A DNA stretch of 64,000 bases, taken from the NCBI GenBank assembly GCA_963693365.1, contig CAVNZM010000004.1, forward strand, positions 8,159,093 through 8,223,092, in the 5' to 3' direction. A program made the translations under genes and the position numbers. The notes under the pieces were generated by a model. The model ran no database searches and was not told the origin of the DNA. It saw nothing but the letters and a program-made list of their open reading frames with translations. This DNA comes from Amoebidium appalachense (taxonomy: Eukaryota; Protista; Ichthyosporea). This document shows positions 5,501-46,747 of this stretch, piece after piece (within the stretch, counting starts at the first letter, position 1; each line of letters begins with the position of its first letter).

Positions 5501-5802
5501 AGAAAGCAGGACAGAAAACACGAACAGCAAAACACAGTTATAACCGAAGATATTCATGTACACATAACATGTACACGTTTCTCCCTCACTGGGTAGACTC
5601 GTGTACCTATAATCAGTTGCTGTAATCGATATCTAAACACACGAATATAGCCGACACAACACGATTACAAGTACTCAAATACACTGGAGATCGATGTCAT
5701 AATTTACGTACAAGGAGCACATCTTTTTCATTAAGTAAATGAATGAAAACATAACACGAACTGAGAAGATCTTACAATATGTAAATACTACGTATTATAA
5801 CA
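2550..5802 (-). mobile_element. Element A: non-autonomous Ty1/copia-type LTR element
   Basis: Near-identical 935-bp LTRs 2550-3484 and 4868-5802 (TG..CA), TSD GATAG, PBS GGTTATGGGCCCAG, PPT AAGTGGGGA. The 1.4-kb interior has no intact gene; its 3' UTR and LTR U5 match copia F. Confidence 0.93.
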
Positions 5803-19300: not shown

Positions 19301-20113
19301 TCTCCGATATGCTTGTATACTTGTAATCGTGTTGTATCGGCTTTAATCGTGTATTGTAATATCGATTAGAATATTTATATGTGTGTACACGGATCCACCC
19401 ACTCAGGGAGAGACGTGTACATGTTCGTGTGTACATAAATATCTCTGGTTATAGTTATGCTATTACTATCTTGTTTGTTGATCTGTGCTCTCTTTTCCTT
19501 CCTCTTTCTCCTTCCTTATTTTCTTTTCTTTCTCTCCTTGTCTTCATGTGTATAATCGTATTTCTTTTCTACTAATATATGTTAGGTAGATTTGTGTTAC
19601 TTAATACGTGTTCATTGGACGGTAACACACTTAGGCTACACTTAGAATAGCATGTGTGTTTAGACTTCATTAATTCACTTTAGTTTTCATGTGTTGCCGG
19701 GCTTTAACCAATCATCAAGGTTAAGTGTGATATGTCTGAGTCTTTGCAGTATGTCATAGGTTAGAACTTCCTTGATGATGACACGAGTTGATCCTAACTA
19801 GTGTCTGTGTCCTATCGTGTACGCCTCCGCGTACCGGATCTCTCTGAAAGCAATTGGTTCTTAGTGATTGGTTTCTATTAGAGATGGATCTGATTTCCGA
19901 CTGGTCGGAAATCATGTATGGATTGGACTTAGAGGAATTTCAGGTATTTATTCGAAGATCAGAATAAATTCAGTTCAGTCGTGTCTAAACATTGATGTCT
20001 GTTGTGTACACTGCTCCGATCGTTCCGTGTTTTGTTGTTGTGTGTGTCTGTGGTGTTTTCACACTGCACCACTGTGTCTCTGCTTACATCCCAAATACTA
20101 ATAGAAATTAACA
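13375..20113 (+). mobile_element. Element F: full-length Ty1/copia LTR retrotransposon
   Basis: 925-bp LTRs 13375-14299 and 19189-20113 appear identical, TSD TGGTT, PBS GGTTATGCAGCCC, PPT AAGTGGGGA, complete gag-pol between them. Confidence 0.97.
14362..18768 (+). CDS. Copia gag-pol polyprotein (Gag, CCHC knuckle, protease, GAG-pre-integrase, integrase, RT, RNase H); two frame breaks near poly-C runs (~15110, ~16930)
   Basis: CSYCHEPDHTIIDC, WDSGC, WHHRLGH, FDSGSEF..PQLNGYVER, KARGVAQGF, QLDVSTAFL, LKKALYGLKQA, YVDD, YTDADFAG, RTKHIAVRYH, NLADILTK; IN precedes RT. Confidence 0.95.
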
Positions 20114-21151
20114 TGGTTAGTACCCAACCCAACCCCAAAACAAGGATAATATGAACCGCCACTGACGTTGCCCTGTAGATGCACCTCTGCCCCGTCCACA
20201 ACCTGCACCCAAAACCCCATGCCCCTGGCACAATGTTATATCGAGTGGAACATAGCAACAGACATGATAACAGACACCATCCATACAACCACACTCAGCA
20301 TGCCCCATCCACAAAGAATTCCTAGCAAAACCTAACATGCCACTGACGAACACCTCCAGACTCATGTGGCGTACACCTCCAGACTCTCTTGCTGGCCATT
20401 CCTCTACCCGACAAAGACTCCTACTACGTAGGTCCCGGTGGTTTGGGAATGCCTCCGCCCCAACCGTGCCCTACCCAGTGGTGTGTCTAAGGCCTACTGC
20501 TGCACTGGGCACCACAACACTACTCAACAACACTACGGGCAGCCACTCCAAAGGGCCTCAACACCAGGCCCAGGGCAGCCACTCCAAGGGGCCTCAGCAC
20601 CAGGCCCTTTGACGACGGGGGTTCACAACAGTGGGGGCCTGCCACTGCCATGACTACACTTCGACCCCCCCCAGCCCCCTCGTCAGAGGGCCGAGCTCCC
20701 AGACAGCAGCAGGACTTTCTATTCCACTGACCCTAACCACACACGTCGCCAACACAGGACTCATACACACGTCGAAAACGCCAGGCACCAGTAGAAAACT
20801 CAGCGAAGAAAAAAAAAAAAACACCACACAACTCCCATACAACAACAACAACCCAAGAGACACCCTACCCCCTAATAAAACCTTCATACCAGCAACACGG
20901 CCACCGACGTCCCTGCCCCCCCACGACGGGGCTGTTTACACCACGCGTTGCCCCCGCTCCTTGCAGTTGTCACAGGTGCCTGGGAAAGAGCCTGGCGCCG
21001 GCTCTTGCGGTCCCGCCCAAAGACGCCAGCCTGGCCCATCTGTTATCCCGTTGTGGCCGTGGCTGGTAGGGCTGGTAGCGCCGTGGGGAGGGTGATCGCC
21101 GCCGGTCCCCTCTGAGGCCTCTGCTGGGCAAACAGCCCTGAGCTTGCTAAG

Positions 21152-24643: not shown

Positions 24644-25878
24644 GGCCCGGGTCCACAGATCATCAAGATCAAGTCCGGGGCCTCAAGATAGCTGTACAGC
24701 TGCGTGCATCTTGCCTCTGCCGGCGCAGGGCAGGGCCACGTCAGCTGAAGCAGCCGACCAATAGAATTCTAATTAGTGTGTAGGATAGATCGTAGGAGGA
24801 CTTAGGAATGTGATTGTTCGGGCAAAAGCCCTTTTGTAAGTATTGGCAAGGTTTGATAGTGTATGTTGCCAAACGTATTTATATATTTCGATGTAGAGGA
24901 AAGGGGGGGAGGGAGGGGGGGGGAGGATAGTATGAAATGTAGATTTAGACTCTGCGGTGCCACTAGGGGGAGGGTGAGGGGTGAGACATGGATAAATATA
25001 TTAGTTGAGTAGATCGACTTAGCTCGTGCAGGCGCACGATAAAGTAGATCGGAATGTTTGGAATGTGGCATCGTAGGGGGGCCAGGTGATGATGATCTTT
25101 GAGGGCACGGCCTTGATGGCCTCAGTTGTGACTTAGCCTCATTCCGTACGGATCTAAGTTTTGCCCGTCGGAGCCTGGTCTGAATAAACTTTACCGTTTT
25201 CAGTCACACGTTCGTTCCTTTCAGTGTGTGTACACTTAGAAGAGTGCCGCGTCTCTAGTACATACACAATAGGATACGACATGTATGAAGCCTTTGGAAG
25301 GGGGAAACTTGGACACATTGCAGCATTTGCACAAAATGAGGAACTTGATTTTCACGCACACACACTCCAGAAATGCTCTGCCTGTGCACTTGACACTGCT
25401 TAAGACATACACGAGTCATACACCAACACATATGGCGTCTCTCACCACTATGCACAAAAACCAGACATCACAATGGCTTTGCGTTAGGCCTTTACACTTG
25501 CACACCCACTCGGCACACACCTACAACACCAAATTGCCTTAATTGAATCTGGTCGTGCAAATCTTCTGCAAGCCATTAAAAAGCCAGACCTGCGGCGTGC
25601 CTTTTTGTTTGAGTTTTTAATGACAAGCGAATATGTGCCTAAAGTGTCTGCCTCCTATACGTACAGTTCGGTTGATGGTGAAGTAAAAGACGTTGACCAG
25701 GACTTTTCTGTTGGTTTATTTGATGCACTCTGCTCCATGACACAAACCAACTTAAGGATCTGGTCACCCTTTATGAACCGCCTAAAACCCCGAGTGGCAC
25801 TTAGTACTCCAGCCAAACCACACCAGAACACTGGATATCCTGCATGAAGAGACACACACAGGATACAACTTATACAAG

Positions 25879-26805
25879 TTGCAAGAGCCTGCAGACGTTT
25901 TTGCACACATCAGCGAATGGAAACTGGAAAACGTTACTCTGTCACAACAGAACGTCTGTAGTTTTTGCACCTCACGCCTATTAAAAGAGGAGAAATCCTC
26001 TTTCTGTTGTGGAAACGGAAAATGGGTGATCCCAACACTCCCCCCCCTCCCTTTACAGCTAACACAATTATACAGCACACCTGCTTTCACCAAAAAGGCA
26101 AGAGAATATAACAACATGTTTGCATTCACAGCCATGGGCTGGTCTCAAAGAACCGTTACACAGGCAGCTCCTTCATTTGTCAAGGTATGCGGCAGGTCAT
26201 ACCACAGGGTGCACGATTCAACTACCAGTCTTTCCAATATAAGGTACTATATCTATGAAGGTATACGGGCAGCAGTTGCTGCTGCAAGATCTCTGTCATC
26301 AGCTTTCATTTCACTCCTCGAAAGTGCTCTGTACCATTGCAACCCTATAGCATCTGAGTTCCGCTGACTAAGCCAAGCCTACCCAGACCAAGAAAACTTT
26401 CACGTAGCCTTTCAAAGCAATAACAGAAGAACTGCTACACCCCAGGCTCGCGAGATTGCAGCCTTATATGATATGGACCCAGTGCATGCAGGAAGACACG
26501 TAATATGGTTCCACCGATTCTCAAACCAACGTCCCGACTCGGAGCAAGTTCACTACCTAAATGAGCTATGTGAACCACTGCAATATCCTTTACTGTTTTT
26601 GCAAGGCACACCAGGTTGGAGCCTCAATACCTTTTCTACTTCAGGTAAAAAGGTTTCAGTCACAAAAGCAGCAAGACGACTACTGCACACTACCCACTTC
26701 CACAATGTTGGCAGGTTGATGTCTGAATGGGCCTGTGACCAATTTTCACGAGCAGAAGATGAAAGACTGGACTGGGTGAGAAGTAGACAATATATCCATA
26801 AATGA
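25879..26805 (+). pseudogene. Helitron RepHel N-terminal fragment
   Basis: CSFC..CCGNGK..LPPLP..REYNNMFAFTAMG..FVKVCGRSYHR and EPLQYPLLFLQGTPGW..GRLMSEWACDQFSRAEDERL match the Helitron N-terminal region; in-frame TGA at 26365-26367; no helicase follows. Confidence 0.85.
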
Positions 26806-26866: not shown

Positions 26867-27685
26867 AAGAAGTTCCGGATCCTGTATATTAATTTCTGCG
26901 CCTGTCAGTGAAAGTCTGTCACCTACTGAGGTGACTCGTATTTTTCCTTACACACACAGCGAACACTGGACTCTCGGGACCGTCGAGCCGCCGCGAGAGA
27001 ATGCATGCACGCGGTCGCGAGAGTGTAAACATCTGTACACGCCGTACATGTTTACTATTACGAATATACTGTACATATCATAGTGATCACGTAGATATTG
27101 TGTACATATGATCAGATCAATATCACACGCGACAGCCGCGGGCTGCGGCTCACGACTGAGCCGCGGCGCCGGCAATATGCAGTGGCCGTGCAGTCAGTAT
27201 GAACCAATAGAATTCGAGAACCGCTAGGATAGGAATGCAAGTCTCATCCACTACGGAGGCGACATCTATAGCTAAACGAACGGAACCAATAAGGAAATCA
27301 GACCCAGTTGCATAAACCTAAACGGGCTTAAGTATTGACCAATCATTTGCCACAAAGTTATCCTTTTAGTTAGCTTCATGTTATTGGTGCACTGTGTGCA
27401 CATAAAGACGACCGCACTCTTCTGACTGGTCAGAAGTCACGAAGGCATCAATGCCACCCATCCAGATGATCCGGAACCTGGGGGCTATATAAACAAGCCG
27501 TCCCAGTACGGGGGATCACTCTGAACGAGCACATTAAATAGTAACCTGGCCGCGTGTGCCTTACTACCCGTTCTCTGTCTTTATTCTGATTCAGTTGTTC
27601 TCTGCCTTATCCCAACTAGTTCAACTGTTTACATTGGCGACCGCGCAGTTCCAGAATCTCACATCTTTCAAGAATCTCTTCAACC

Positions 27686-29690
27686 ATGGCGGGCGAATTT
27701 GACGACTACCCTGTACTCTCGGACAATGAAAGCAAACTGACACGTGACACCAAGAAGCCTACCGCAGTCAAACCGCCGCCCCCAACGCAGAAGAAAGCCA
27801 AGACTCCGGGGCAGGGCACGAAAACACTCCCCACCCCCTCCCCCTACACAGCCTCGTGCTCCCCAGAAACCGAACACGATCACAAAACCCAACACACACA
27901 CGAACACAAAGGCAACTACGAAGCCCACTGGCAACGAACAAACGAAGCCCAACGAAAGCACGAAACCCAAAGACAAAACGAAGCGCAACGAACACACGAA
28001 AACCAACGAACATACGAACACCAACGAACACACGAACACCAACAAACACACGAACGAACTTCAAGTAGCAACGAAGGAAAAAACGAAACAAGACCGGGAC
28101 ACTGCCACAGCTCTGGCAGAGGTGCGGGGCCGTGTTCTCTCCAAGTTCTATCGTATTGAAACTCTGAGACGTGCCATTCAAACTGCAATCGATGCTGGGC
28201 GGCCTGTGATGGACCTCGAAGCTGATGTCGCGCAGATTTACAGTGAGATTTCGCAGATGGAAGACACCACACTGTCTAGAATCATGTTGTGCACGTCCGC
28301 GAAATGGTCTGAGTTGGAGCGGGAAGCACAGTTGGTGGCTGAGGCACGTGTGAAAAATACGACGGTGCCCACCACCCCCCGTCCTCCCCCACCCACCACA
28401 GGCAAGAAGCCTTTGTCCCCGGTCCCATCTGGGTGCACTGATCCCAAGGTAATTGCACCTCCCGCACCCCCCACTAAATTTACATATAAGGATGTGCTTG
28501 CGCGCACACTCAGCTACACTGATTCTGATGCTGAAAATGAAGAAAAACACGAACAAAGTTACGAAGACACACCCACAAACGAAAACGAACACATGACTGC
28601 GAAAGTGCATGAAGAAGATCACTTCGACCAGCCTAAAGCACCCGTATTTAACGAAATCCCCCTTGCAGGATCCCCTCTGGCGTCTGCAGGTGGACTGGCA
28701 GGCACGCCAAGTCGCCCGAGAGGCTCTGATGTCAGCACAGGCTCAGGAGGTAAGGCTGGGTCTATATTGAACAAGCACTTTGCAGAGCACGAAAAACTGT
28801 GGTTGCACCCTCTCCGCCAGTTGCATGCATCCGAATACGGCCCCATCTTGGCTGCATTGAAACTACCAGAATACAAGGGTGACTTGCAGGATAAATGCAC
28901 GGTGATTGAATGGCTGCACGAATTTTCCCAGCAGATGTTTTGCATTGCAGGGGTCCCCCCCACACTTGCTGTTCGCTGGGCGGTGCAGTGCTTTCCTCTT
29001 GCTTCCCCCGCCCGTGTGTGGTACACGAATTTTACCAGGACACAGGGAGAACTCACGTTTGATGCATTTGCACATGCACTAGTTACGAAATTTCACGACC
29101 AGCGTGTGCAAGAGGCACTCAGTGCCGAATTAAATGCACTCAAACAAGGCAAGCAAAAGGTGGCCGAATTTGCAAGCAGGCATGCGCGTTTGTGGGCACG
29201 TGTGTACCCCCTTAAGTCTGAGGCACACCAAATTTTGGATTTGTCTCACCGATTGGGTGGGGAAGACGAACAAGAATTTCGCAAATATCAACTCAGACAA
29301 ACACGAAAAGAAGAAGAATTGACCCTGTCTGGAGTTGTTGCCTATCTCGCAGAAAAAGAAAGAGACAGGCACACACGAACCCCATCCACCATTCTAACAC
29401 AGAAACCCCCCACAAAACAGCAACCCGGTGGTGGATCTGGTGCCAGCGAGAAGCCGTCTATTTTTTCGCGCATGGGCACCACCCCCTGCAACCGTGGGTG
29501 CAAGTACGGCAGCCACGCCGAAGGCAAGACGTGCCCGGCCCTCAAATTCGAATGCCACTCCTGCAAGCAGAAGGGGCACTTTGGGGGGTCACCAATTTGC
29601 CCCAAGTACGACCCCAACTTTAAGAAGGGAACCCGCAAGGCAGAGATTGAGGCTAATCGGGCCAAGTTCAAGAGAGCACGTGTAGAATAG
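27686..29690 (+). CDS. Element E Gag (one frame break near C-runs at ~27830-27845)
   Basis: Retrotransposon gag core (LPEYKG..WL..ARVWY..FDAFAHALVTKF..LKQG) and knuckle CHSCKQKGHFGGSPIC; ATG just downstream of the PBS. Confidence 0.88.
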
Positions 29691-32600
29691 GAAGGCGGGC
29701 AAGGGACTGGTCTCTCCCCAGTAGAACATAATGTATTTGATTTAATAGCAGAGCTGGAACTGTGTTCCCCTCTGGCAGATAAATTGCAAAATAAATCTAC
29801 TGGTGCGGAAATTTCTGTTGTCTCGGAGCCCTCCCACGAATCTGCATGTGCCCCACCCCCCCACGAACAGTTACCCCCGTGTACTGACCCCCCCATGCAC
29901 ACGCACACCCCGCCCCCGCGCAAAAAGAAAAATGTGCATTTTGCTGACCGTGTGCACTCCTCCATTGCAGAACCACGGCATGAAAATGCCACTGTGTGCA
30001 CATTAACCCACGAAAATAAATGCACAGCCACACTTGCGCGAATGTATGTGCATGGGAAGCTAGTCACAGTAGTTGTCGACTCTGGTGCTAGCCATAGCTG
30101 TATAAGCACAGCATTTTACGAATCTCTCCCTGTAGTGGCAAGAAAACGAATTCAGCATGTTCCTAATTTTAGTGTACTGGATGCACAAAGTAACGAAATG
30201 ACATGCCAAGGAAGTATATCTCTCACTCTCGCCATTCCCAACGAATCTGCTCTAGTGGTGCACAGATGGCATGTGATTGATAATCTACCATATGATGCCT
30301 TATTAGGTGTTGATTTCATGGGGCCACAACAGGGACGAATTGATTACGGTGCTGCAGAACTTTCGTTCATGTATGCTAAGGGAAATCGCAGGTGCAGTAT
30401 TCCGGTGTGGTGGTTGCGTGGGAGTGCGGAGGAGACAGCTGTTTCTCGCGTATTAATTACCACCACAGGTATTCACCTCCCGGTAGATGCGTCAAATATC
30501 GCAACGTGTAAAATAAAACTCGCTGCCGGCGCACCACCACCACGAACTTTAGACTGTTGTATGGGCACAGTGGTTCCATGTGGTCCACTTAATTCACGGG
30601 CTTACACAACAGCATGCAGTGTCACCAGTTTAGCTCGAATTTCGAATAACGAACCCCCCCCTCTCCACTAGCGAAGAAAGTGTGATCGAGGACGAATACG
30701 AATGCAAGGTGTTGTTGACTAACACATCGGACCATCATGTGTACCTAGGCCCTGGTACGGAGGTGGCCATGTTTATTCCCTTGCAATCAGATGACACTGT
30801 TACTCTTTTAGCACGTCCACACTCCGGTAATGGAACCAGGAGGGCGACAACCCCACACCCTGGCCATCCATTAGGTACCTCTGCTAAAACGAACTTTTCT
30901 TCGCAGGAATCACCCGAAGAACCCACCGAACACGAACCACACACTTTCCAGGCGGCTACTAATATTAACGGTAGTATTAAGGTGTGTGAACGGAGTAAAA
31001 TTATGAATATGAGTACGAAAGAGAACACCACACAGCGCAGTTCCACGAAAATGAATGGTTTTGGTAATCCAGCACGAACAAAACCAGAGGTAGGGCCACC
31101 TACTATCGAAGCAGCAGATGGGGCACCATCTACCACTGCACTGGAGGATACGAATAATTTACGAAAGCGTACGCACGAATGTACCTCCGACGGGGAAGCC
31201 GCCACAGACGACGACTTGCCTTTTGGGGTCAAACCTCCAGAAGAATACGACATGCCTGGAACTCCCCCAGACCAACGGAAACCGTTGGCGAAACGGATAC
31301 GAAAACTGCTTAAGAAATGGAAGCATGTGTTCTCTGCACACGACAACGACTTTGGTTTGAGTACCTTAGACGAACTGTCGATCGAAGTAACTACCACCAT
31401 ACCACAGTACCGCAGGCCCTATAACATCCCACATCACCTTCGCGATAGCCTACACAAACAAATTCAAAATTGGGTAGAGTTTGGAGTGATTGAGCCTGCG
31501 TCCAGCCCTTACTCCGCTCCGATGGTGTTGGTGGCGAAAAAGGACGGGTCTTTAAGAGTCTGCATTGATTTTAGAATGCTGAACTTGATTACGAAGAAAG
31601 ACGGTTACCCTTTACCACGAATTGACATGGCTCTGGGTATGCTCAGAGGTGCCCGCGTGTTTTCCGCACTTGATTTAAACGGTGGTTACCACCAAGTCAA
31701 AGTAGCCGATAACGACAAAGAAAAACTTGCATTTACCACCCCCTGGGGGCAGTATCAATTCGCACGCGCACCTTTTGGAGTAAGTAACATGCCTGCTGTC
31801 TTTTCAAGGATGATGAACCGTGTATTCGCTGGTATGCTGTGGACACATGTACTCATATATCTCGATGATATATTAGTTATGTCACCCACTATCGAAGAAC
31901 ATTTTGGGCATTTAGATTCATGTTTTTCCCGGCTCTGTGATGCAGGATTAAAACTGAAAGGCAGAAAATGCTCTTTGTTCATGGAAGAAGTTGGCTATTT
32001 AGGCCATCGCGTATGCCCGGATGGTATTAAGGTAGACCCAGAAAAAGTGGCAGCAATAAAGAATAAAAGCTACCCACAAAATTTATCTGAGCTACGAAGT
32101 GACCTCGGGTTATTTTCATATTATCGAATATTTGTGGACGATTTCAGCCATACGGCTGAACCACTCACGCGAATGCTGGGCACCTCGAAGGAGGATTCAG
32201 AATTACTAAAACGAATTCACGCAAAAATGCCCCCCTCTACGAAACCCGCCAAACGCAACGGCAGCGCAAAACAACGAAAAGACGAAGCAAAAAATTTGCA
32301 CGCCGATTCTGCAGCTATTTTGGCCACGAAAAAGAAAGCACAGAAAAATGCTGCATGGGTGTGGGGTACGGAACAGGAGAAAGCATACGATACCCTTAAG
32401 AATGCGTTAATTAATGCACCTGTGCTTGCTCACCCCGATTTCACCAAACCTTTTATTGTTGACTCAGATGCTTCACAGTATGCTCTGGGCGCAGTGATTT
32501 CGCAGGTAGGTGATGACGGCAAAGAACGACCCATAGCTTATGCTAGCAGAACACTCTCTAAGAGTGAACGAAATTATGCGGCGAATAAAAGGGAAGCCTT

Positions 32601-34593
32601 AGGTGTGTATTGGGCTGTGTGCAAAGCATTTCGCGCTTACACCTATGGGGCTCCTTTCTTGTTACGAACCGACCACTCCAGCTTGACGCGCATTCTGTCT
32701 ACCGGCGATGCACCGGAACCTGTTGTTGCAGGCTGGCAAATGGCGCTTTCCGCATACACATACGAAATTCAGCACAGGGCGGGCAAACACCACAGCAATG
32801 CTGATGGACTCTCTCGGCCATCTAAAGAAAATGCGCAACCAGGACCCGAAGATACTGAGCTGACATACCCCTCACTGATCGGCACAGTCTCGGGCTCGTC
32901 CACGGTGTTTGCGGTAACACGCTCCGCCGCAGCGACAGCGCAGGCACAAGCTGCCACCCACCCACCCCCAGCTGAACCCACGAAACCTAATACCACGCCG
33001 CCAGAATTTATTCCCCCAAAAGCGGATGGACGAATGCCCACCTATGAACAGTATGTGTCAGCACAGAAGGCTGATAAACACATTGCGAAAGTCAGGGCCT
33101 ACCTGGAAAAAGCACCGGGCTACGAATTATTTGGCAACGAAATCGCGATGGAAGCTAGTCGCTGCACCATAGACAATGACCTTGTGTATGTGTGGGTCCT
33201 AGAACAGCGTGGCCCCCGCAAACCCAGCAAGGAACCACGAATTTGGGTGCCGTCTACGCTTGTGCGCCTCGTTTTGGCCGCATGTCACGACGCCCCAACC
33301 GCAGGTCACCTCGACGCAGCACGCACCTTCCACCGTGTTACCCAGATAGCATGGTGGCCACGTGTATGGCAAGACTCGGTGCAGTGGGTAACCACATGCA
33401 AAGCCTGTCAATACCGGAAGACACCCCGAATGCAAAAGAAACTACGAATTCACGATGGTTTTATCCCCACCTATCCCTTTCAATACGTGTCTATGGACAT
33501 TACTGAGATGCCTACGAAATCTGATCTCAGAGTTTCCCTGTTGGTGTTTCTCGACCTCTTCACTCGCTGGCCGGAAGTGATTTTATTTCACAAAACACCC
33601 ACAGCCGAAGATGTGGCAAAGGCATTCGAAGACTCCATCTACTGCCGTCACGGTCGTCCGGAATTTTTAGTATCAGACAACGGCGCGAATTTGGCAGCTA
33701 TGTTGGTCACAGATGTCTGTCGAGTGTTGGCTACAAAACGAATTTTTGCAAGTCCCTACAGCCCCCAGACCAATGGTGCCGTAGAGCGATTCAATCGCAC
33801 ACTTAAGAATATTCTTGCCACTCTCGTGCAGGATAAACACCACGAATGGATTGACTACTTACCGCAAGTACTGTTTTCCTACCGCACCGCCTACCACTCT
33901 TCCTTGGGGGACACGCCATTCTTCATGCTTTATGGCAGAGATCCGGTCGAGCCCCCCCGCCCCCCAATTGCGGCTTCATGTGGGATGGAGACGGAGGAAT
34001 ACCGTCGAGAACTACTGCAACGAGTGCAGTATGCCCGGCAAACAGTCACACGAATTATGTCTGAAGCTGCCCGTCGTAGTAAAATCACGGCTAACAAAAA
34101 TGCTCGTGAACCCACAGAACTCGAGGGTCTGGTGTTGAAAGCAGTCACAGACTCCACCACCGACCACAGTCTACCCACGGCACTCAGACCTAAATGGGAA
34201 GGTCCGTATCGCGTCCTGCGGCGCGTTACCGACGCCCCCATGTCTTACGAAATTCAGCGGGTTGGGTCAACGGACACCGTTCGAGCACACGCACGTCACT
34301 TGAAGCCGTATTTTCCCCGTGACGACGTTGATATGACGCCAGCCGACTCTGGTCCGCAAGATTCACCCACCCCCACCTTCGAAGTGGCAAAAATTATTGC
34401 CCACAAGTACGACTCGGCAACTGCCCAAGCCCTTTACAAAGTTCGTTGGAAAGGGTACACGGCTAAGAACGACACCTGGGAACCTCACTCCGGCCTGCAA
34501 GACACAGCCGCAGGAGCACTCACAGACTACCTAGGTACTTTGGTGGCCGGCCCTGCCAGCCAGCCCGCACGAAAGAAGCGCCGACGTCGCTAA
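29691..34593 (+). CDS. Element E Pol: protease, RT, RNase H, integrase, chromodomain (frame break at C-run ~30655)
   Basis: VVDSGASHS; LRVCIDFRMLN, LDLNGGYHQ, YLDD; VDSDAS..AYASR..REALGV..TDH; HHCC zinc motif, SMD..SDNG..PQTNGAVERFNRTL, GPY; FEVAKII..YKVRWKGY..DTWEP. Confidence 0.95.
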
Positions 34594-37206
34594 CTTCCCT
34601 CAGCCTGGTGGTTTACCGTCTCCAGACCATACCACCAGGCTCCCGAGAAGGGGGGGAGTGTAAACATCTGTACACGCCGTACATGTTTACTATTACGAAT
34701 ATACTGTACATATCATAGTGATCACGTAGATATTGTGTACATATGATCAGATCAATATCACACGCGACAGCCGCGGGCTGCGGCTCACGACTGAGCCGCG
34801 GCGCCGGCAATATGCAGTGGCCGTGCAGTCAGTATGAACCAATAGAATTCGAGAACCGCTAGGATAGGAATGCAAGTCTCATCCACTACGGAGGCGACAT
34901 CTATAGCTAAACGAACGGAACCAATAAGGAAATCAGACCCAGTTGCATAAACCTAAACGGGCTTAAGTATTGACCAATCATTTGCCACAAAGTTATCCTT
35001 TTAGTTAGCTTCATGTTATTGGTGCACTGTGTGCACATAAAGACGACCGCACTCTTCTGACTGGTCAGAAGTCACGAAGGCATCAATGCCACCCATCCAG
35101 ATGATCCGGAACCTGGGGGCTATATAAACAAGCCGTCCCAGTACGGGGGATCACTCTGAACGAGCACATTAAATAGTAACCTGGCCGCGTGTGCCTTACT
35201 ACCCGTTCTCTGTCTTTATTCTGATTCAGTTGTTCTCTGCCTTATCCCAACTAGTTCAACTGTTTTAGGCGGGAATTTAGACCAATCTTGATTTTTTTAA
35301 GGTAGCAAATGCAATTCTGCTGTGACCCCACCCAGGGAGTCTATCATGGTACCTTCATAACGCCCTGCAGATCATCCAAAGACTTTTGGGAACCCCAAAT
35401 GCCATTGATAATATTTTTCTTTTGACTCGAAAAATACGACCAAAAGAAAAACTTGTACCTTTCTTTTTATCCAAATAATTACGAATATAACCAGATCAAC
35501 GCTTCAAAAGTTTACAAAAATACATTTGAATGCATCTCCTGCATCTAGAAAGCTGCAAGTGGATTTCTATTTACATTGCTTCACAGGATGTAATATCGGA
35601 ACCTAACTAATAGGTTCCCCCCCGACTCCGGATTGTTAGGAATTTGTTAATTATTCCAGCCAATCGCAAGCAGCGAGTCCCATCCACCGGAGAATAACAA
35701 ACTCGTTGGAATTTTATGAGTTCAACTTGGGCCACTGTAGTACTCAATCGCTTAAGAAATGGCATAGAACACAAGTCATAAAATGTCCTCTTTGTTTCTT
35801 TACTAAACTACCTACATACAGGGCTTGATATCGGTTTTCTGTAGAGGTGCACCGGGTCGTACCCGAATTAATCGTGCAGTAGTGCAGATGCCACGTGGAT
35901 GAGCAGCAAAAGACCTTGGAATGGGTTTAGGGCTGTTTCCTACATTTTCTTGGGGATAAATACCTTTTCTAACCAATCACGGTCATCAAAAATGTAGAAA
36001 AAGCTCTTGCGATTGGCTTGGATAGCTGAAGTTAGACAACCCTATAGCCAACCAAAGCATGAAAACCGTTTGGCAAACGAAGGCTTTAGTTTTCATCAGG
36101 CTTTTCAATTTATAGATAAATAATAAGAATATGTACGGTTAGATTCTCTTTTTCTGAAGGGCTGAAATGGAATCTCATGCTCAGTGGAAAAAGGACAACC
36201 ACAGTTTCAGCAGCATTGAGCAGCGTTTTTGAGTGAATCACAAATGTCACTAAGGGGACCAATGGGGTGGTAGGTTATAGAAAGTCATGACCTATAGTCA
36301 ATCAACATTCAACACTTTTGACAACCTATGTAACGACATTGTGTGAGATGCGCTACCATAAGATTTACACATGGAAACACGTTTAACAAGGACGAAAATG
36401 TGCTAAAACAGGTTTAAATTGCATTTGGGAATATAGAACCCGATAATTCACAAGTACTTCACTAATGCCGCCACAACTGCTTCAACCTGCATAGAACACA
36501 AGTTGATGCCTGGTAACCAATCAAAAATGCCGTGAACTACGGTGGTTGGTCACATAGCACACCCTGGTCATTCACAGTCCATCAGTTTCAGTGCCGGCAA
36601 AACATTACATTGGAACGCGGTCAATGATTGCCTAACGGCTTTCGGGATCGATTTGTCGAAATCACGATATGTAAACAATGCGTACGTGCATAGCTGTACA
36701 TCCTCGGCAAGAGTGTTTTGTTTTCGGGGTCTATTTCACAGAAGTAGAAAATGATTTCAAAAATTTATCAGCTAGGGTAAAAGAATAATAGATTGCAGCC
36801 AGGCTTCGAAATTCAGGGATCGATAGCAGGGCCGTCAGCTAGCGTGTGCGTGCATACGGCACAGGGCTGGTTCAACTTGGCTTCCTGATGCTATATAGAA
36901 TTAATTGGCCAAATGTCATGCACTGGCCGGTCACCTCCCTTACTGTACAATTTTTCCGTAGCGTGCCAGTTATCAGCGCTTGCCGCCGGAGGTTCACTTC
37001 ACCTCAGTGTGGCTTTCAGGAGGGGTTCTTCGTTTCCGGGCCCTTTCTTTCGTTCCTTCTTCTCCATAGCGCTCACGTTTTTTCCACACGCTTTTCGTAA
37101 TTTTCATATAGGATAGTTCGCCCACAGCCCAGACAAGCCCCCGTTGTCTGGTTTAGGCTGTGGTGCGGGCAGAACGGGTTCTAATTTGTACGAGCGCACC
37201 GCCAAC

Positions 37207-40003: not shown

Positions 40004-43000
40004 CGTGTGTGTGTGTTTGCTTGTGCGTGCGTGTGTGTGTGTGTAGCAACAGTTGTGTGCCTATGTGTGTTTGCCCTTTTTGCATGGGTGCTTCCTTACA
40101 CGGATAACGTATGTGATTGGAAGTGTCCTCAGTGTGTGTGTGCGCGCGAGTGTGTGCTGCTATGTGAGACACATACTTTTTACGTGCCTTTGTGATCCTT
40201 TCATAGGTTTCATGGTTATTCTTGGTTAAGTCAAGGTCATTCAAGCATGTGAGATGCAAGCTATGGTGTGATTTTTTTGTGAATGGCAGATGTGTGGTGC
40301 TGGAGGGTTTTCCACTTCTCTCTCCCTCTCATGCTTATATGCGCATGTACACGTCTTGCCTTCCATGCTCCCGTGCACACACACGTCTTGTCTCCCATGT
40401 ACTTCAGCCCAGTAAGAGTATCTGTGTTGGGAAACAGAGGTATCGTGTGTACTCGTGTTCGGAATATTTCAGTTCGTGCATGTGTTTGCTCTGTTGTTTT
40501 TCTGGTGGTGATGGTTTCCTTTCTCTTCCCGTTACACGTGCTTACTGTACCCCCCCCCCCCCCCCCCCCCCCTCTCCCCTAGTAGTTCCAGCCCTTTTTC
40601 AGCCCCCCCCCCCCCCCCCCCCCCCTCCCTCCCCCCTCCCCCTTTCCTCAAAACCTCCCCTGTCATGTTGCATTACAAACAGTCCATATGTGTATGTTCA
40701 TTGGTTGTGAGTGTGACGGTAACTTTAGAGCATTTTTAGGTATTTAGAGTTGCTAGGGTTGGCTCGTTTTACATGGGTCCGTGCCTGTGTGTCTTTTGCT
40801 AATCTGCATCACCGTGTTCGTTGGAAATGTGCACGTCGTACTCAGTAGCACACTCCTAACCCCCCGCCCCCCCCCCCCCCCCCCAAATAATAAAAAAGAA
40901 AAAAAAGAAAAGAAAAGAAACAATTCACACCCACACCCATCACCCCCATGACTTTGGTCTAGCATGTTATCCACTAAAAATGCAACCCCTCTTGCTTGCG
41001 CAACCCTGCTCGTCTTTGATCAAGACGGGTTGACCCACCCAAGTTCAGTTGATGCTGCTGTCTGAGTTGGAGGGTCGTATATACGTGGGCTAAGGGGTCG
41101 AAACTTAGACGCAATTGATGACTTGGGCCCTTCCTGAGGATGGGCTCTGCTTATGACGCATACTGTGCGCATGGCTGATGTTGCATACTTGAATGTTTGC
41201 CTTTGCATGTGTCCTGCACCATGCTTCTCATCGTGTATGCGTACTTCGTACTGTGTTCCGCATTGAAACCCCCCTCCTTGCCCTGTTTGCCTTTGCATGT
41301 GTCCTGCACCATGCTTCTCGTCGTGTATGCGTACTTTGTACCGTGTTCCGCATTCAAACCCCCCCCCCCCCCCCATACGCGGGCTAAGGGGTCGAAACTC
41401 AGACGCAATTGATGACTTGGGCCCTCCCTGAGGATGGGCTCTGCTTATGACGCATACTGTGCGCATGGCTGATGCTGCATACTTGAATGTTTGCCTTTGC
41501 ATGTGTCCTGCACCATGGCTTCTCATCGTGTATGCGTACTTCGTACTGTGTTCCGCATTCAAAACCCCCCCTGTCTTCTTTCAGAGGTGTCCTTTCAGGA
41601 CAGACCACTGTGTGGAGACATCTTTACTTCCATGCAACCGGGCATGGTTGCTCTGTGTCGTGCATCTGTAAGCACATACGCGTTTGTCGCTGCACTGCAT
41701 TAGTTTGCACATACATCTTCACCGTTTTGCTCACCTTGCTTGCATAAGCAACCCTGCTCGTCTTTGATCAAGACGGGTTGACCCACCCAAGTTCAGTTGA
41801 TGCTGCTGTCTGAGTTGGAGCGTCGTATATACGCGGGCTAAGGGGTCGAAACTCAGACGCAATTGATGACTTGGGCCCTCCCTGAGGATGGGCTCTGCTT
41901 ATGACGCATACTGTGCGCATGGCTGATGCTGCATACTTGAATGTTTGCCTTTGCATGTGTCCTGCACCATGCTTCTCATCGTGTATGCGTACTTCGTACT
42001 GTGTTCCGCATTCAAAACCCCCCCCCCCCCCCCGCCCCCCCCCCCCCGCCCCACACTCTTTGCATGGTGTTGTGGATGTCACAAATGCGTGTGAACGAGA
42101 ATGTGCAGCATTTCCTTTTCGTTAGAGTTTCCTTGCAGACTGACCAATACCCTTACAGCTGACAACACGTGCTTTGACTGGGACGAGTCGGAGCAGAAGG
42201 TGTTCCTCGACTCCTGCTCTGCTGTTGCGAAGGCGGCCAAGCCCAACACCAAGGCGGCGCTTACGCAAAAGTGGATGTGGTTTGCTGAGTGGATGGATTA
42301 CTTCAACACACACACGAACAACCCCATCATCCCGAACAGCGGGGGTTCCCGTCTGGATGGCTACACGATCCAGCAGTGTATGAAGGACTGCCTGTACAAC
42401 CCCAACTGCAACGCCTTCATGTGGGACGGCACCACGTGCAAGCACACGTCCGTCAACGGCACCTGCGAGCTCGTGTTCCACCAGCAGAATGATCCGTGGA
42501 TGATCTGTATTGCTGGTGACCGCCAGGACGGTGGGTGGTCCCAGTGGTCTGCCTGCTCCCGCACGTGCGGTGGTGGCCAGCGTACCCGCAAGTGCAACAA
42601 CCCGTGCGTTCACAACGGTGGTGAATGCTGCAAGGGGCCAAGCGCCGAGTCCTGTAACGCCCAGTCCTGCAGCCGCAACCCCGGAGAGACCTGCTCTGGT
42701 GGCTGCTGCAGTATGTCCCCCCCCCCCCCCCCCTCCCCCCCTTACGCCCTCCCCCCGGGGAGCTTCCTAGAAGCCCCGTCTCCTGAGTTCCTATCTATAT
42801 TTTTCTTGCTTCTGCTTACTGCTGCAACTTTAACCCCCGGCCTTTCCCACTGCCCTTGCCTGCATAAGCAACCCTGCTCGTCTCTGATCAAGACGGGTGA
42901 CCTACTCATGTTCAAGTGAAACAGTATCTGAGTTGGGTTTCGTTAACGAGGGGAATAGGTCGAAACTCGGGTACTGTGGATGACGTGGGCCCCCCCTGAG

Positions 43001-46000
43001 GATGGGCTCTGCTTATTATGCATACTCTTTATGTATGGCTTGCATTCTGCATCGTGTTATCCGTTTGTTCTTGTGTACTTCGTACTTTTTGACGCATTCA
43101 AAACCCCCCTCCCCCTTACTTCCCCCCCCCCCCCCCCCCCCCCCCCCGCCCCTCCTTCCCCTCCAGCAACCCCCTCAGCACAGAGAGCACTCGCATACGT
43201 TCTCCCCTCCCTCCCTCCCCCCTCCCCCCCTCCCCCCCCCCCGCCCGCCCGCCCGCAAACATACACAATGCTCAAATTCTAACTTTAATACTTCCAGTCC
43301 ATCTTTTCACCCTTTACGATGTGCAGGGTTTTGGATTTCCTTTTAGAAAGTAGTTGTTTATGCACAATTGTACGATTCATCATGCTACCGTCCATTCTCT
43401 TTGTTATTTATCAGTGCCGGTCTGGGTGCAATTTTGTTTCATGCTGCTCTTTGACAGTCTTGTCCTGAAGAATGATGGGGTACTGAACCTGTGTGAACAT
43501 TTTCTGATCGCATTCAATGCACATTTCAGAGTACAAGCTGGTGCCCAAGGCCGATGTCAAGTCTTCCCTTGGCGGTGGCGAGGTGCTGCCGCTGGAGACC
43601 TGCAAGGCCCGCTGCACCAAGATGAAGGGGTGCAACGGTTTTTCGTGGGATGGTCGTCGGTGCTGGTACAAGAGCGTCACCACTAAGGGCGCCATCGTTC
43701 CTTCATCCACCACGAGCCTGTACCTGCAGGACTGCCCGGCCGGCACCTGGTCTGCATGGGGTGCATGCTCCGTCACATGCGGCAACGGCGGTATCCGCAA
43801 GCGCACCTGCCCAACCAACAACTGCATTGGCGCCGCGCAGGAGGCATGTGGTGCGGGTCCATGCTGCACGTTCCGCCTCAATGCCAAAAAGGACGTTCCC
43901 CTCAAGACCATCCCCGGTGGTGGCAAGATGGCCCTGAACGAGTGTATGCGCAGATGCGCGGCCAATGCCAAGTGCAACTCGTTCGTGTGGGACGGGTCCA
44001 CCTGTATCATGAAGGCCATGTCCAGCTTGGCCGACATGGTGCCCAGCACCGTGTGGTCGACCTACACTGCCTCCTGCCGTGTCATCCCCACCACCTCCGT
44101 CCCGGTCAACGGCAAGTGGGCGGAGTGGGGTGTTTGCAGCACCTCTTGCGGCGGCGGTACCCGCTCTCGCACGTGCACCAACCCCCCACCTTCGAACGGC
44201 GGCTCGCAGTGCGCTGGGGCTGCCACTGAGACGTGCAACACCCTCCAGTGCTGTACCTACCGTCTTTTCCCGGCCAAGGATGCCACCCAGGATATGGCCG
44301 GTGGCGGAGCAATGACTCTGAACGAGTGCAAGGCCAACTGCCGTGCCACCACAGGTTGCACAGCTTTTGCCTTCAGCGGCTCTGCGTGCCTGTTTAAGGC
44401 CCTGCCCGTACCCGTCAAGGACCCCAACACCGATCTTGTTCCCTCTGCCACCTACGACATGTATGTTCAGGACTGCTTCAGCGGCCGCACCAACGGGAAC
44501 TGGGGTTCATGGAGCATGTGCAGTGTCAGCTGCAACGGCGGCATCAAGACACGCGAGTGCAACAACCCTGCCCCGGCCGGTGGTGGAGCCACATGCAGTG
44601 GTTCAGCCTCTGCCAGCTGCAACACTGGGGTATGTGTGCACTGGGAGGTCTACCCCAAGAAGGAGACCCACGTCATCACGATTCCCGGGGGTGGCTACAT
44701 GACTATTGACGAGTGCAAGGCGGCGTGCGTTGCCACCCCCACCTGCACGGCATTCACCCACAACGGACAGTACTGCAACCTCAAGGCTGTCACCAACGCC
44801 ACCACGGAGGTGGTTGACGACAGTGAAGAGTGGGACACGTACGTCATCAACGGCGAGGATTCTCTTCTGCCAGCGGGCACCCCCATGTGGACTGCCTGGA
44901 GTGCGTGCAGTGTCACGTGCAGCATTGGCGTCAAATCGCGCCTGTGCGTGGAGGCTGTTACTGGCAAGCCATCGAGTGCCTGTGTCGGTGACAACGCTGC
45001 TCCTTGTGATGCTGGTCCATGCTGCAGTACGTACCCCCCCCCCCCCCCCCCCTTCCCCCCTCCCTTCTATCTCCCCCCCCCTTATCTGCCCCTGTTTCCT
45101 TCGAAGGGCTCCACCTCTTTAACTTACATACTTGACCCTTTTTGCTTCTACCTATATATGCCTTGCACCCCAGCAAGCTCTACTCTGGCTCAGTTTGAGT
45201 CCATTCATTGGCTCACTTATTATTCTAAAAATTCAGGGCTCGTTTTGCAGTCGACATTGTGTTTCCTGTCTTGAATGTGTACTTTGTAGTCTACTGTATC
45301 CCCCTTCCGTCCCTCCCTCCCCCCTCCCCCTTCCCCCCCCCTCGCCCCTCTCCGCCTCCCCCCCCTGTTTTCTTTCCCAGTTCCCCCCTCCATCTTCTCT
45401 GTTGCTCGTGTACCGGCCTCGTGGTGAAAGAGAACTTGTTTGGTTGCATATGTTGCACCTCTAATTCAAACAAATGATAACACAACCATTCCCTTTAGCA
45501 TTCGACAAGGTGTCGGGTGAGGTTGCCGGCATGGACACCGGTGGTGGTGGGTGGTATGATGCCGGCTGGACCATTGCCAAGTGCAAGCAGGTGTGCGCAG
45601 GGACTCCCAACTGCTATGCCTTCACCGACACTGGCAAGGGCTGCTGGTTCAAGAACATTCCGTCCGACAGCGCAGTGACGCCCCACAGCACATTCTTCAC
45701 TTACATTGAGCGATGCCCTAAGTCTGGATGGTCTGCTTGGGGCGAATGCTCGAAGAACTGCGGTGGTGGTACCCAAAACCGAACGTGCCCCCAGGGCTCC
45801 ACATGCTCAGGGAGCAACACACAGGCTTGCAACACTCAGCCCTGTTGCCGTAAGCATCCCCCCCCCCCCCCCCCCCTCCCCCCCTTCCCTGCCCATCTGC
45901 CTTATCCAAACACTCTTCGCCCCCCAACCCTACTTCCCTCGCTTTTTGAACAATCTAGATGCAACCGTCAGCCCTGTTGTAGTAGCCCCCTATATACGCG

Positions 46001-46181
46001 GGCTAAGGGGTCGAAACTCAGACGCAATTGATGACTTGGGCCCTCCCTGAGGATGGGCTCTGCTTATGACGCATACTGTGCGCATGGCTGATGTTGCACA
46101 CTTGAATGTTTGCCTTTGCATGTGTCCTGCACCATGCTTCTCATCGTGTATGCGTACTTCGTACTGTGTTCCGCATTCAAG

Positions 46182-46214
<33 letters not shown>

Positions 46215-46747
46215 TCCCCCTTCCCCCCCGGTCTTTGTCCCTGCCCATCTGTGCCTCATCTCCCCTCGCATCTACATCCCTCTTCATCTGTATCCCCCCC
46301 CCCCCCCCCCCCCCCCCCCCCTTGCTTTTCAAACAATCTTCTCCCTCGGCTCTAGTTCTGATGGTTGAAAACGTTGTCTGTAAATCAACAGATGCCCCCC
46401 CCCCCCCCCCCCCCCTCCCCTTGCTTTTCAAACAATCTCCTCCCTCGGCTCTAGTTCTGATGTTTGAAAAAGTTGTCTGTAAAATCAACAGATCCCCCCC
46501 CCCCCCCCCCCCCCCCCTCTCCCTTTTCGACTCTCCAGCCTCCTCCGCCCCAGCCTTTCAAGTTTTCTATTTTCCCACGTATGTGAGTTTCATTGAGTTT
46601 GCTCTGCTTTTGCCTTATATGAAGACCGTATTCTTATTTTCTACGGTACCCCCCTCCCCCCTACCCCCACACCCAACCCCCCCCTTTTTTTTCCTCCAAA
46701 GGGGCAAAATCTGCTTGGCCAACACCCCACACATGATGCTTCTCATT

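Follow-up and report, generated by a model that had tools for sequence, protein, structure and literature searches.

Repeats and a host exon at the locus

The window, a 64,000-nt stretch of contig CAVNZM010000004.1 of Amoebidium appalachense, holds a host exon lying between introns that bear units A and B of a short non-coding repeat, together with further copies of that repeat:

40991..41268, + strand: copy C (subfamily A), core complete, 5' strand of helix P1 damaged, predicted cut after 41068
41284..41358, + strand: fragment F, a 3' piece of subfamily A
41375..41564, + strand: copy D, truncated at its 5' end and forming a head-to-tail partial tandem with unit A, its start being nucleotide 13 past the predicted cut
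41572..42017, + strand: unit A, a full-length copy of the non-coding repeat with 446 nt, to which a C7 junction is added; the period is 454
42159..42710, + strand: host exon with PAN and TSP1 domains
42757..43103, + strand: unit B, diverged subfamily, 81% identity to A over 179 nt, 5' part different
41989..42017 (A) and 43075-43103 (B), + strand: 3' end common to A and B, a GTAC-TTC-GTAC inverted repeat, then GCATTCAAAA and poly-C
45991..46181, + strand: copy E, 5'-truncated, its start being nucleotide 10 past the predicted cut

The earlier note had placed a structured RNA inside the introns, and this location is borne out by GT/AG borders at 42158/42159, 42710/42711 and 43529/43530 and by a contig of 10,753 nt from run X10, guessed to be RNA, that aligns to 42156-42708 alone. 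Protein searches for the host lineage turned up no relatives but distant or unnamed ones. The repeat that carries the module is interspersed and has landed in introns; the fold is a property of the repeat and not of the introns. Its units are non-coding, 350-450 nt long, arranged head-to-tail, 5'-truncated, flanked by poly-C and present at very high copy. Four window copies are truncated at the 5' end, D and A make up a partial tandem (pLTR) with the 454-nt period, and poly-C lies 3' of 6/6 window copies; loose ends in poly-C are also seen in the public contigs. These contigs cover the tandem junction (41547-41572) deeply and have heterogeneous copy 5' ends, those of runs X15 and X16 beginning at 42757, the start of unit B. 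In run X1, 15,656 contigs match the window, with depths that sum to 2.9e5-8.7e5 over the repeats but to about 9 over the exon, depth not being equivalent to copy number. Five X1 contigs, with 18-25 differences, align to 42861-43039 alone, and the module is therefore common to families with other flanks.

A hammerhead core in split order

The modules of units A and B comprise the following elements:

41744..41902, + strand: putative ribozyme module of A, with P1 as its closing helix (41744-50/41896-902; pair probabilities 0.89-1.0)
41757..41777, + strand: P2 hairpin, immediately ahead of the 5' strand of stem II
41780..41784, + strand: stem II 5' strand of A, G10.1 at 41780, partner 41843-41847
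41786-92/41869-75, + strand: bridging helix of A, counterpart of the 'I' helix in type-SGC hammerheads
41807..41820, + strand: block S of A, with stem III 5' strand, GUU 41814-16 and stem I strand 41817-20
41821..41842, + strand: stem I-II linker of A, a hairpin with a perfect 10-nt palindrome (41824-33)
41843..41859, + strand: block G of A, with stem II 3' strand, C11.1, GAAA 41848-51 and stem III 3' strand
41878..41889, + strand: first half of block C of A, with stem I strand, CUGAGGA 41882-88 and an extra U into P1
42864..43016, + strand: putative ribozyme module of B, CUGAGGA 42996-43002, palindrome 42940-49
42899-904/42956-61, + strand: stem II of B
42905-11/42983-89, + strand: bridging helix of B
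42921-33/42965-77, + strand: stem III of B
42935-37/42993-95, + strand: stem I of B

All helices named in the earlier note lie where it put them. The closing stem (41744-50/41896-902), the hairpin (41757-77), CCCAAGT/ACTTGGG (41786-92/41869-75) and a long stem at 41807-15/41851-59 in A, extended to 13 bp in B, are seen, and the crossing pair (GACCC 41780/GGGTC 41843 in A, GACCTA 42899/TAGGTC 42956 in B) is present and corresponds to hammerhead stem II. The statement that the fold does not fit a hammerhead was mistaken: the whole core is there, in a non-standard order. As read from their sequence, the A and B modules are a full hammerhead core in scrambled order and not a new ribozyme class, so that what had been offered as possibly a new ribozyme would be a known ribozyme with new wiring. 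CUGAnGA, GAAA, NUH, G10.1-C11.1 and A15.1-U16.1 are present, with invariant core bases, in 3/3 intact copies (A, B and C), and by analogy with known hammerheads the cut is predicted after 41816 in A and after 42934 in B. HDV, twister, pistol, SRP, RNase P, SECIS, C/D and U3 were dropped after comparison by eye with their consensus features.

From stem IIa the strands proceed to the bridging helix, S (GUU), G (GAAAC), the bridging helix again and finally stem Ia-CUGAGGA-U. CUGAGGA comes some 100 nt after the 5' strand of stem II, and two added helices, P1 and P2, therefore fall within the core, between A9 and G10.1. Stem I measures 3-8 bp, stem II 5-6 bp (with the upstream strand) and stem III 9-13 bp; the linker from stem I to stem II is 22 nt in A and 18 nt in B, and the bridging helix, 7-8 bp in both, joins the far sides of stems I and II. 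Module B has its weak points, namely a stem I of 3 bp, a nested pair probability of at most 0.1 for the bridging helix and a scaffold 2.6 kcal/mol above the minimum.

Two strands could serve as the 5' side of stem II. The one just after CUGAGGA gives 2 bp and then a G.G mismatch, whereas the one about 100 nt upstream is perfect, carries a both-sides change and pairs with the better energy (upstream strand versus strand after CUGAGGA-U, -8.5 vs -5.4 kcal/mol in A and -6.7 vs -2.2 kcal/mol in B). We consider it quite unlikely that the module is an ordinary type-SGC monomer, in which a weak stem II would form from the strand directly after CUGAGGA-U and the upstream strand would act as a competing switch. 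In A the former does provide a G-C, a G.U, the G.G mismatch and four further pairs, and in the available part of PMC10085705 SGC-1/2 likewise have a U following CUGAUGA; this stem II is, however, weaker, with 5/7 pairs in B, it leaves no 'I' helix, and in those records of Naiad elements that were read by eye the strand that follows CUGAnGA forms P1 with sequence upstream and mismatches the strand before GAAA.

The split-order hammerhead can be set beside several known systems, here as far as the available portions of the cited sources describe them. S-G-C is a non-circular hammerhead order of Eckert et al. 2023 (PMC10085705), whose type-SGC and CSG ribozymes cleave in vitro and whose block model takes helices inside the core as not occurring, known alignments having at most 1-2 nt there. 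With the type-SGC hammerhead (HRIMA-1 and variants, PMC10085705) the module shares the S-G-C order, the full core, the U after CUGAnGA and a helix linking the 3' side of stem IIa to the 5' side of stem Ia, the bridging helix having been likened by eye to the SGC-1/2 oligos. The block order and far-side helix of type SGC are thus found in the module, whereas its uninterrupted block C and its linker of about 3 nt are not: block C is interrupted by P1 and P2, with the ends open in P1, and the I-II linker, at 18-22 nt, contains a hairpin. In the module, unlike type SGC, both strands connect stem III with the bridging helix, and the module is chromosomal and eukaryotic while the SGC RNAs of PMC10085705 come from environmental sequence. 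Hammerheads tolerate an added nucleotide between A9 and G10.1, and a U there speeds cleavage (PMC3705267). The pseudoknot-containing hammerhead of PMC11300833 also has a pseudoknot helix in place of helix II; its A9 runs directly to G10.1-C11.1, with pistol-like connectivity, whereas the module is split. The minimal dimeric type-I hammerheads of canonical Penelope-like elements (PLEs; PMC4209133) and the non-LTR retrozymes (bioRxiv 10.64898/2026.07.22.740005) are likewise short, tandem, non-coding, PLE-linked repeats with a nucleotide between 9 and 10.1 and a proposed activity as dimers, but their order is circular and their stem III short or absent, against a non-circular order and a stem III of 9-13 bp here; the type-I hammerhead per tandem unit that marks a non-LTR retrozyme is replaced by the SGC order. 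In the openly accessible literature we came across neither a precedent for helices placed between A9 and G10.1 nor a paper that ties Naiads or PLEs to permuted hammerheads or reports a split core; PMC13725137, in its available part, cites references for hammerheads with 'additional helices'.

The earlier note had proposed an Rfam check, and no known family matches the module: the window has no match at gathering score, and at E<=10 three matches fall in 40800-46400, all off the module. To our knowledge, Rfam hammerhead models assume circular orders, and the lack of a hammerhead match is hence as expected.

Chance, strand and alternative signals

We searched for the core blocks in any order (span <=120, stem I >=3, stem III >=6, with thresholds set after viewing the sequences). 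On both strands of the window the matches were copies A, B and C alone, and dinucleotide shuffles passed the search in 0/20,000 cases for A and 0-4/20,000 for B. As to the compensatory changes reported earlier, 3/40 pairs over the three intact window copies change on both sides, while one of these gives a U.G wobble and 20/500 shuffles equal that number, and covariation from the window copies alone is weak. Folding z-scores are similar on the two strands (A+ -3.11, B+ -1.52, A- -3.28, B- -1.10), so that energy cannot choose between them; the strand is indicated by the core motifs and the wobbles, which, as had been pointed out, work only on the + strand.

Among 14 variable positions of the module in public contigs, the pair is kept or improved at 6/14, 3/14 fall in linkers and 5/14 are disruptive. 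The pair-preserving changes include the possibly linked 42903 T>C and 42957 A>G, which have similar depth; the disruptive ones include U4>C, at 3.4% of X1 depth, and four adjacent changes plus an insertion in one X10 group. Chance complementarity within a duplicated intron could be argued from the few both-sides changes and from a unit B that folds only modestly beyond shuffles, but the shuffle null, the interspersed high-copy repeat and the recurrence of the same architecture among unrelated sequences leave this reading largely refuted and, in our judgement, hardly credible. The pattern scan gave 0 matches in viral contigs and 46 loci in metagenomes, which we take as chance since none is similar by blastn and none combines a stem III >=9 with a stem I >=3; one of the 46 (L021) fits a loose split descriptor, with a bridging helix of 4 bp.

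The conserved motifs might instead be internal promoter boxes of a Pol III-transcribed, tRNA-like SINE. Measured against consensus boxes, there are look-alikes of the A box at 41807 and 42925, each with 1 mismatch, and of the B box at 41844 and 42958, each with 1 deletion; their spacing is correct, and such box pairs occur only twice in 82 kb of control sequence. They are positioned mid-unit, the head of a tRNA-derived SINE having its boxes at the 5' end. ARAGORN, however, finds no tRNA, and CUGAGGA, stems I and II, P1 and P2 are left unexplained. The look-alikes share positions with hammerhead blocks S and G, and the likeness may be secondary or reflect dual use; we regard a SINE as very improbable.

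Naiad-type elements and a possible dimer

The Naiad group of PLEs has been reported to be without canonical hammerheads. In the available part of their paper, Craig et al. 2021 (PMC8557442) annotated Naiad 3' UTR motifs as 'HHR_core / HHR_half_core', the fold going unrecognised. Naiad/Chlamys elements are characterised by partial tandems, truncation at the 5' end and targets of the (C)n kind. We read by eye 17/54 records of file S5 of PMC8557442, 1 of them ambiguous. The split order, with unrelated stem sequences, appears in nine Naiad consensus 3' UTRs, with clear equivalents of P1 and P2 in Bfor, Amil, Anas, Movir-2, Plae and EuTe; five further records end in an unsplit CSG form, and the core bases are kept in 14 Naiad records. 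No motif was seen in Naiad_Ppla or in the incomplete Naiad_Dcar, and none of the displayed Chlamys matches fitted the split fold. With Naiads, as described in that part of PMC8557442, the window repeat shares partial tandems, 5' truncation and microsatellite targets, and the pLTR, truncation and simple-repeat insertion of Naiad/Chlamys elements are all found in it; unlike Naiads it has no ORF and has an extra palindromic linker hairpin, and its poly-C targets recall the (C)n of Chlamys, while Naiad targets are mostly (TA)n. As no PLE ORF (N-terminal GIY-YIG plus RT) was seen within the window, the Naiad/Chlamys link is based on architecture.

We think it likely that the module, with its complete split-order hammerhead core, is a self-cleaving RNA of a short repeat that is probably a non-autonomous Naiad/Chlamys-type PLE; the selected fold, the ribozyme and the retroelement signal that had been suggested are in this sense all supported at the level of sequence. 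Stem III and the bridging helix would together make a single long rod that carries the cleavage strand at its tip and the CUGAGGA and IIa strands at its base. A single molecule could hardly fold back over this length, and hence two modules would probably dock, antiparallel, each lending its CUGAGGA and IIa strands to the partner's site. We lean somewhat towards such docking; otherwise the module would act as a monomer whose stem III is frayed. The geometry behind the dimer argument is crude, the distance needed against that available being 59 A vs 50 A in B but 45 vs 74 in A, and a two-module cofold gains about 11 kcal/mol, which equals the palindrome duplex alone and is uninformative on the catalytic dimer. 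Metazoan PLE hammerheads have been proposed to work as dimers (PMC4209133, available part). A partial-tandem transcript cut at both sites would yield RNAs of unit length or 3' RNAs, for insertion at poly-C tracts by a Penelope-like RT-endonuclease acting in trans, while lone intronic copies would cut poorly and do less harm to host pre-mRNA.

It is also conceivable, if unlikely, that the module is a hammerhead relic serving as a binding or packaging signal for a retroelement protein, with little or no cutting and with mobility independent of cleavage. The hammerhead of the PLE PAc requires protein and is dispensable for in vitro insertion, its mutants inserting in vitro, and no RNA ends at the PAc cut site, according to the available part of PMC11167929; the short stem I of B, the large core insertions and the varying 5' ends of the copies would also suit a relic. 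The invariance of the core bases in the intact copies and their retention in the Naiad records argue against it, as would the starts of D and E (2/4 truncated copies) 13 and 10 nt past the predicted site, although a reverse transcriptase stalling at a hairpin explains these equally well.

To return to the self-cleaving repeat, we put forward more tentatively that a five-way-junction hammerhead, active only as an antiparallel dimer, may be standard in Naiad-type retroelements from ctenophores to cephalopods, and that it occurs here in a poly-C-targeting, non-autonomous family, as a tandem sensor, maybe in a non-animal eukaryote. The pairing requirement would free unit-length RNA from partial tandems and leave single intronic copies uncut. 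Should the split-order hammerhead itself be borne out, non-circular hammerhead permutations would move from environmental RNAs to high-copy eukaryotic chromosomal repeats, the assumption that CUGAnGA leads straight to stem II would be broken, and the published puzzle of Naiads seemingly without the hammerheads of other Penelope-like elements would have an answer.

Intronic repeats with Penelope-like features

The window holds six related pieces of a short non-coding repeat, all on the + strand. Copies A, B and C are intact and each contains a candidate hammerhead fold (the module), A and B standing for two subfamilies; D, E and F are partial.

Pieces of the repeat in the window
40991, +, intact copy C
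41284, +, partial copy F
41375, +, partial copy D
41744-41902, +, module of intact copy A
42864-43016, +, module of intact copy B
45991, +, partial copy E

All six are intronic, lying within a very large PAN/TSP1/SdrD-B gene; the earlier note had placed its structured RNA inside introns. This secreted-type gene (37200-64000, +) fuses animal-like TSP1/PAN repeats with a long SdrD-B/Cna-B array, whose named relatives are bacterial (~23-34% identity), and finishes in a 720-bp tandem array; an old gene transfer followed by fusion is possible. In several of its introns a long poly-C tract lies a few bases past the 5' splice site (42711, 45027, 45850). These tracts are likely targets of repeat insertion, which would explain why all copies share the orientation of the gene.

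Poly-C follows each copy, and precedes many truncated ends in public contigs. Copy D runs head-to-tail into copy A, giving a partial tandem with a period of 454, and contig coverage across the junction is deep. According to Craig et al. (PMC8557442), the Naiad and Chlamys groups of Penelope-like elements (PLEs) display partial tandems and 5' truncation, insert at (C)n or (TA)n, and include non-autonomous head-to-tail families. No PLE ORF was seen within the window, and the repeats presumably have an autonomous PLE partner. The unit starts at 41572-41600 and 42757-42775 are pyrimidine-rich and end in CAG or TAG, resembling 3' splice sites; in Chlamys-3_cRei an intron spans the boundary of the pLTR, the partial tandem (PMC8557442).

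In one public run (X1) 15,656 contigs match the repeats, and summed depth on the repeats exceeds that on the exon by four to five orders of magnitude; depth is not equal to copy number, and we infer thousands of copies. In five long X1 contigs the similarity is limited to the module region.

Other mobile elements lie nearby. A chromodomain Gypsy element (27021-35265) inserted recently, since its 610-bp LTRs are identical, and a Copia element with a frameshifted pol (13375-20119; 931-bp LTRs 99.9% identical) has a related LTR pair on the opposite strand (2550-5802). Broken reading frames at 25786-26805 (+) show a tentative likeness to the N terminus of a Helitron Rep/helicase.

A candidate hammerhead with a split core

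In every intact copy GUU (block S) lies between stem III (9-13 bp) and stem I (3-8 bp), C-GAAA-C (block G) is present, and CUGAGGA (block C) has the complement of the post-GUU bases immediately 5'. When both window strands were searched for the blocks irrespective of their order, C, A and B were the only matches, each arranged S-G-C, a non-circular hammerhead permutation whose cleavage has been demonstrated (Eckert et al., PMC10085705). Shuffled units passed in 0/20,000 cases for A and 0 to 4/20,000 for B, with thresholds chosen post hoc on sequences already known. Rfam and ARAGORN gave no relevant match, and folding energy did not discriminate between strands. Every helix named in the earlier note was located. 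Among the three intact copies 3/40 pairs are altered on both sides, a number reached by 20/500 shuffles; covariation is weak alone.

The strand 3' of CUGAGGA-U offers only two stem II pairs before a G.G mismatch. The strand at 41780 (A) and 42899 (B) forms a perfectly paired stem II that is more stable and has a both-sides change. Since this is the stem II strand, CUGAGGA-U enters an extra helix, P1, and stem II is reached via P1 and a hairpin, P2; judged from sequence, the module core is five-way. In modules A and B the segment 3' of this strand pairs with one 5' of stem I; the resulting bridging helix makes the same connection as Eckert's 'I' helix in type-SGC. In that type block C is contiguous and assumed uninterruptible (PMC10085705), whereas in the window modules it is split; a hammerhead tolerates one extra base between CUGAnGA and stem II (PMC3705267). 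The predicted module would work like a type-SGC hammerhead yet lacks the contiguous block of that type.

Perfect 10-nt palindromes lie in the stem I to stem II linkers of A and B, with different sequences; 391/40,974 control windows contain one. In both subfamilies the S and G blocks coincide with Pol III A-/B-box look-alikes.

Public contigs vary at 14 positions within the two modules, counting those where the variant reaches 3% of depth in one run or more. Pairing is kept or improved at six (41785, 42869, 42903 with 42957, 42906, 42969), and three fall in linkers (41821, 41876, 42952). The other five are disruptive: 42997 (3.4%, X1), plus 42987-89 and 42993, which accompany an insertion in one group of contigs from another run (X10).

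Cleavage geometry and copy ends

In the window modules, stem III is joined to the bridging helix through linkers of 5-14 nt on each strand, so the fold would be a rod that carries the cleavage strand at its one tip and, at the opposite end, the CUGAGGA and IIa (stem II 5') strands. By a crude length estimate, a monomer of A is feasible only with melting of pairs between the two helices, and one of B is not. An antiparallel dimer would be compatible with helices of any length; dimers have also been proposed for other PLE hammerheads (PMC4209133).

Cutting of a partial-tandem transcript would yield RNAs beginning at the predicted site. D starts 13 nt and E 10 nt past it, C and F do not, and other repeat ends in contigs are scattered; stalling at the linker hairpin explains the D and E starts equally well. 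By analogy, another PLE's hammerhead, which requires protein and is dispensable in vitro (PMC11167929), keeps alive a non-cutting role for the fold.

Relatives and novelty

Canonical hammerheads are reported absent from Naiads in PMC8557442, which describes eight 'half cores' whose other half lies 35-50 nt off on either side. We looked up short core motifs in its consensus file (supplement file S5), covering 17/54 records and reading matches by eye. The split order, built on stems of unrelated sequence, appeared in Naiad_Plae and Naiad_EuTe (own headers) and, named from file order, in Amil, Aacu (several mismatches), Anas, Obim, Ovul, Movir-2 and Bfor. Six split-order Naiads have clear P1 and P2 equivalents, and in several the linker between stem III and bridging helix falls to 0 nt on one strand. 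Naiad-2_Nbra, Naiad-3_Nbra, two part-13 records (Pristionchus by order) and one part-16 record show an unsplit CSG form. Read by eye, these five records, four of them nematode by header or file order, end in an intact CSG-type hammerhead; Eckert's support for this type is only two sequences (PMC10085705). No motif was seen in Naiad_Ppla or the incomplete Naiad_Dcar, one further record gave an ambiguous reading, and none of the Chlamys matches listed fitted.

Metagenome and viral scans returned no relatives of the module. The sole pass of a loose split-hammerhead descriptor among 46 metagenome pattern matches (locus L021, 1436-1573, +; stems I, II and III of 5, 6 and 7, bridging helix 4) is probably chance. 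In literature outside subscription journals, Eckert 2023 was the sole paper found to use type-SGC, and none found described a split core or permuted PLE hammerheads. The window contributes a poly-C-targeting non-autonomous family, a linker hairpin that holds a palindrome, and two subfamilies in which population variants occur.
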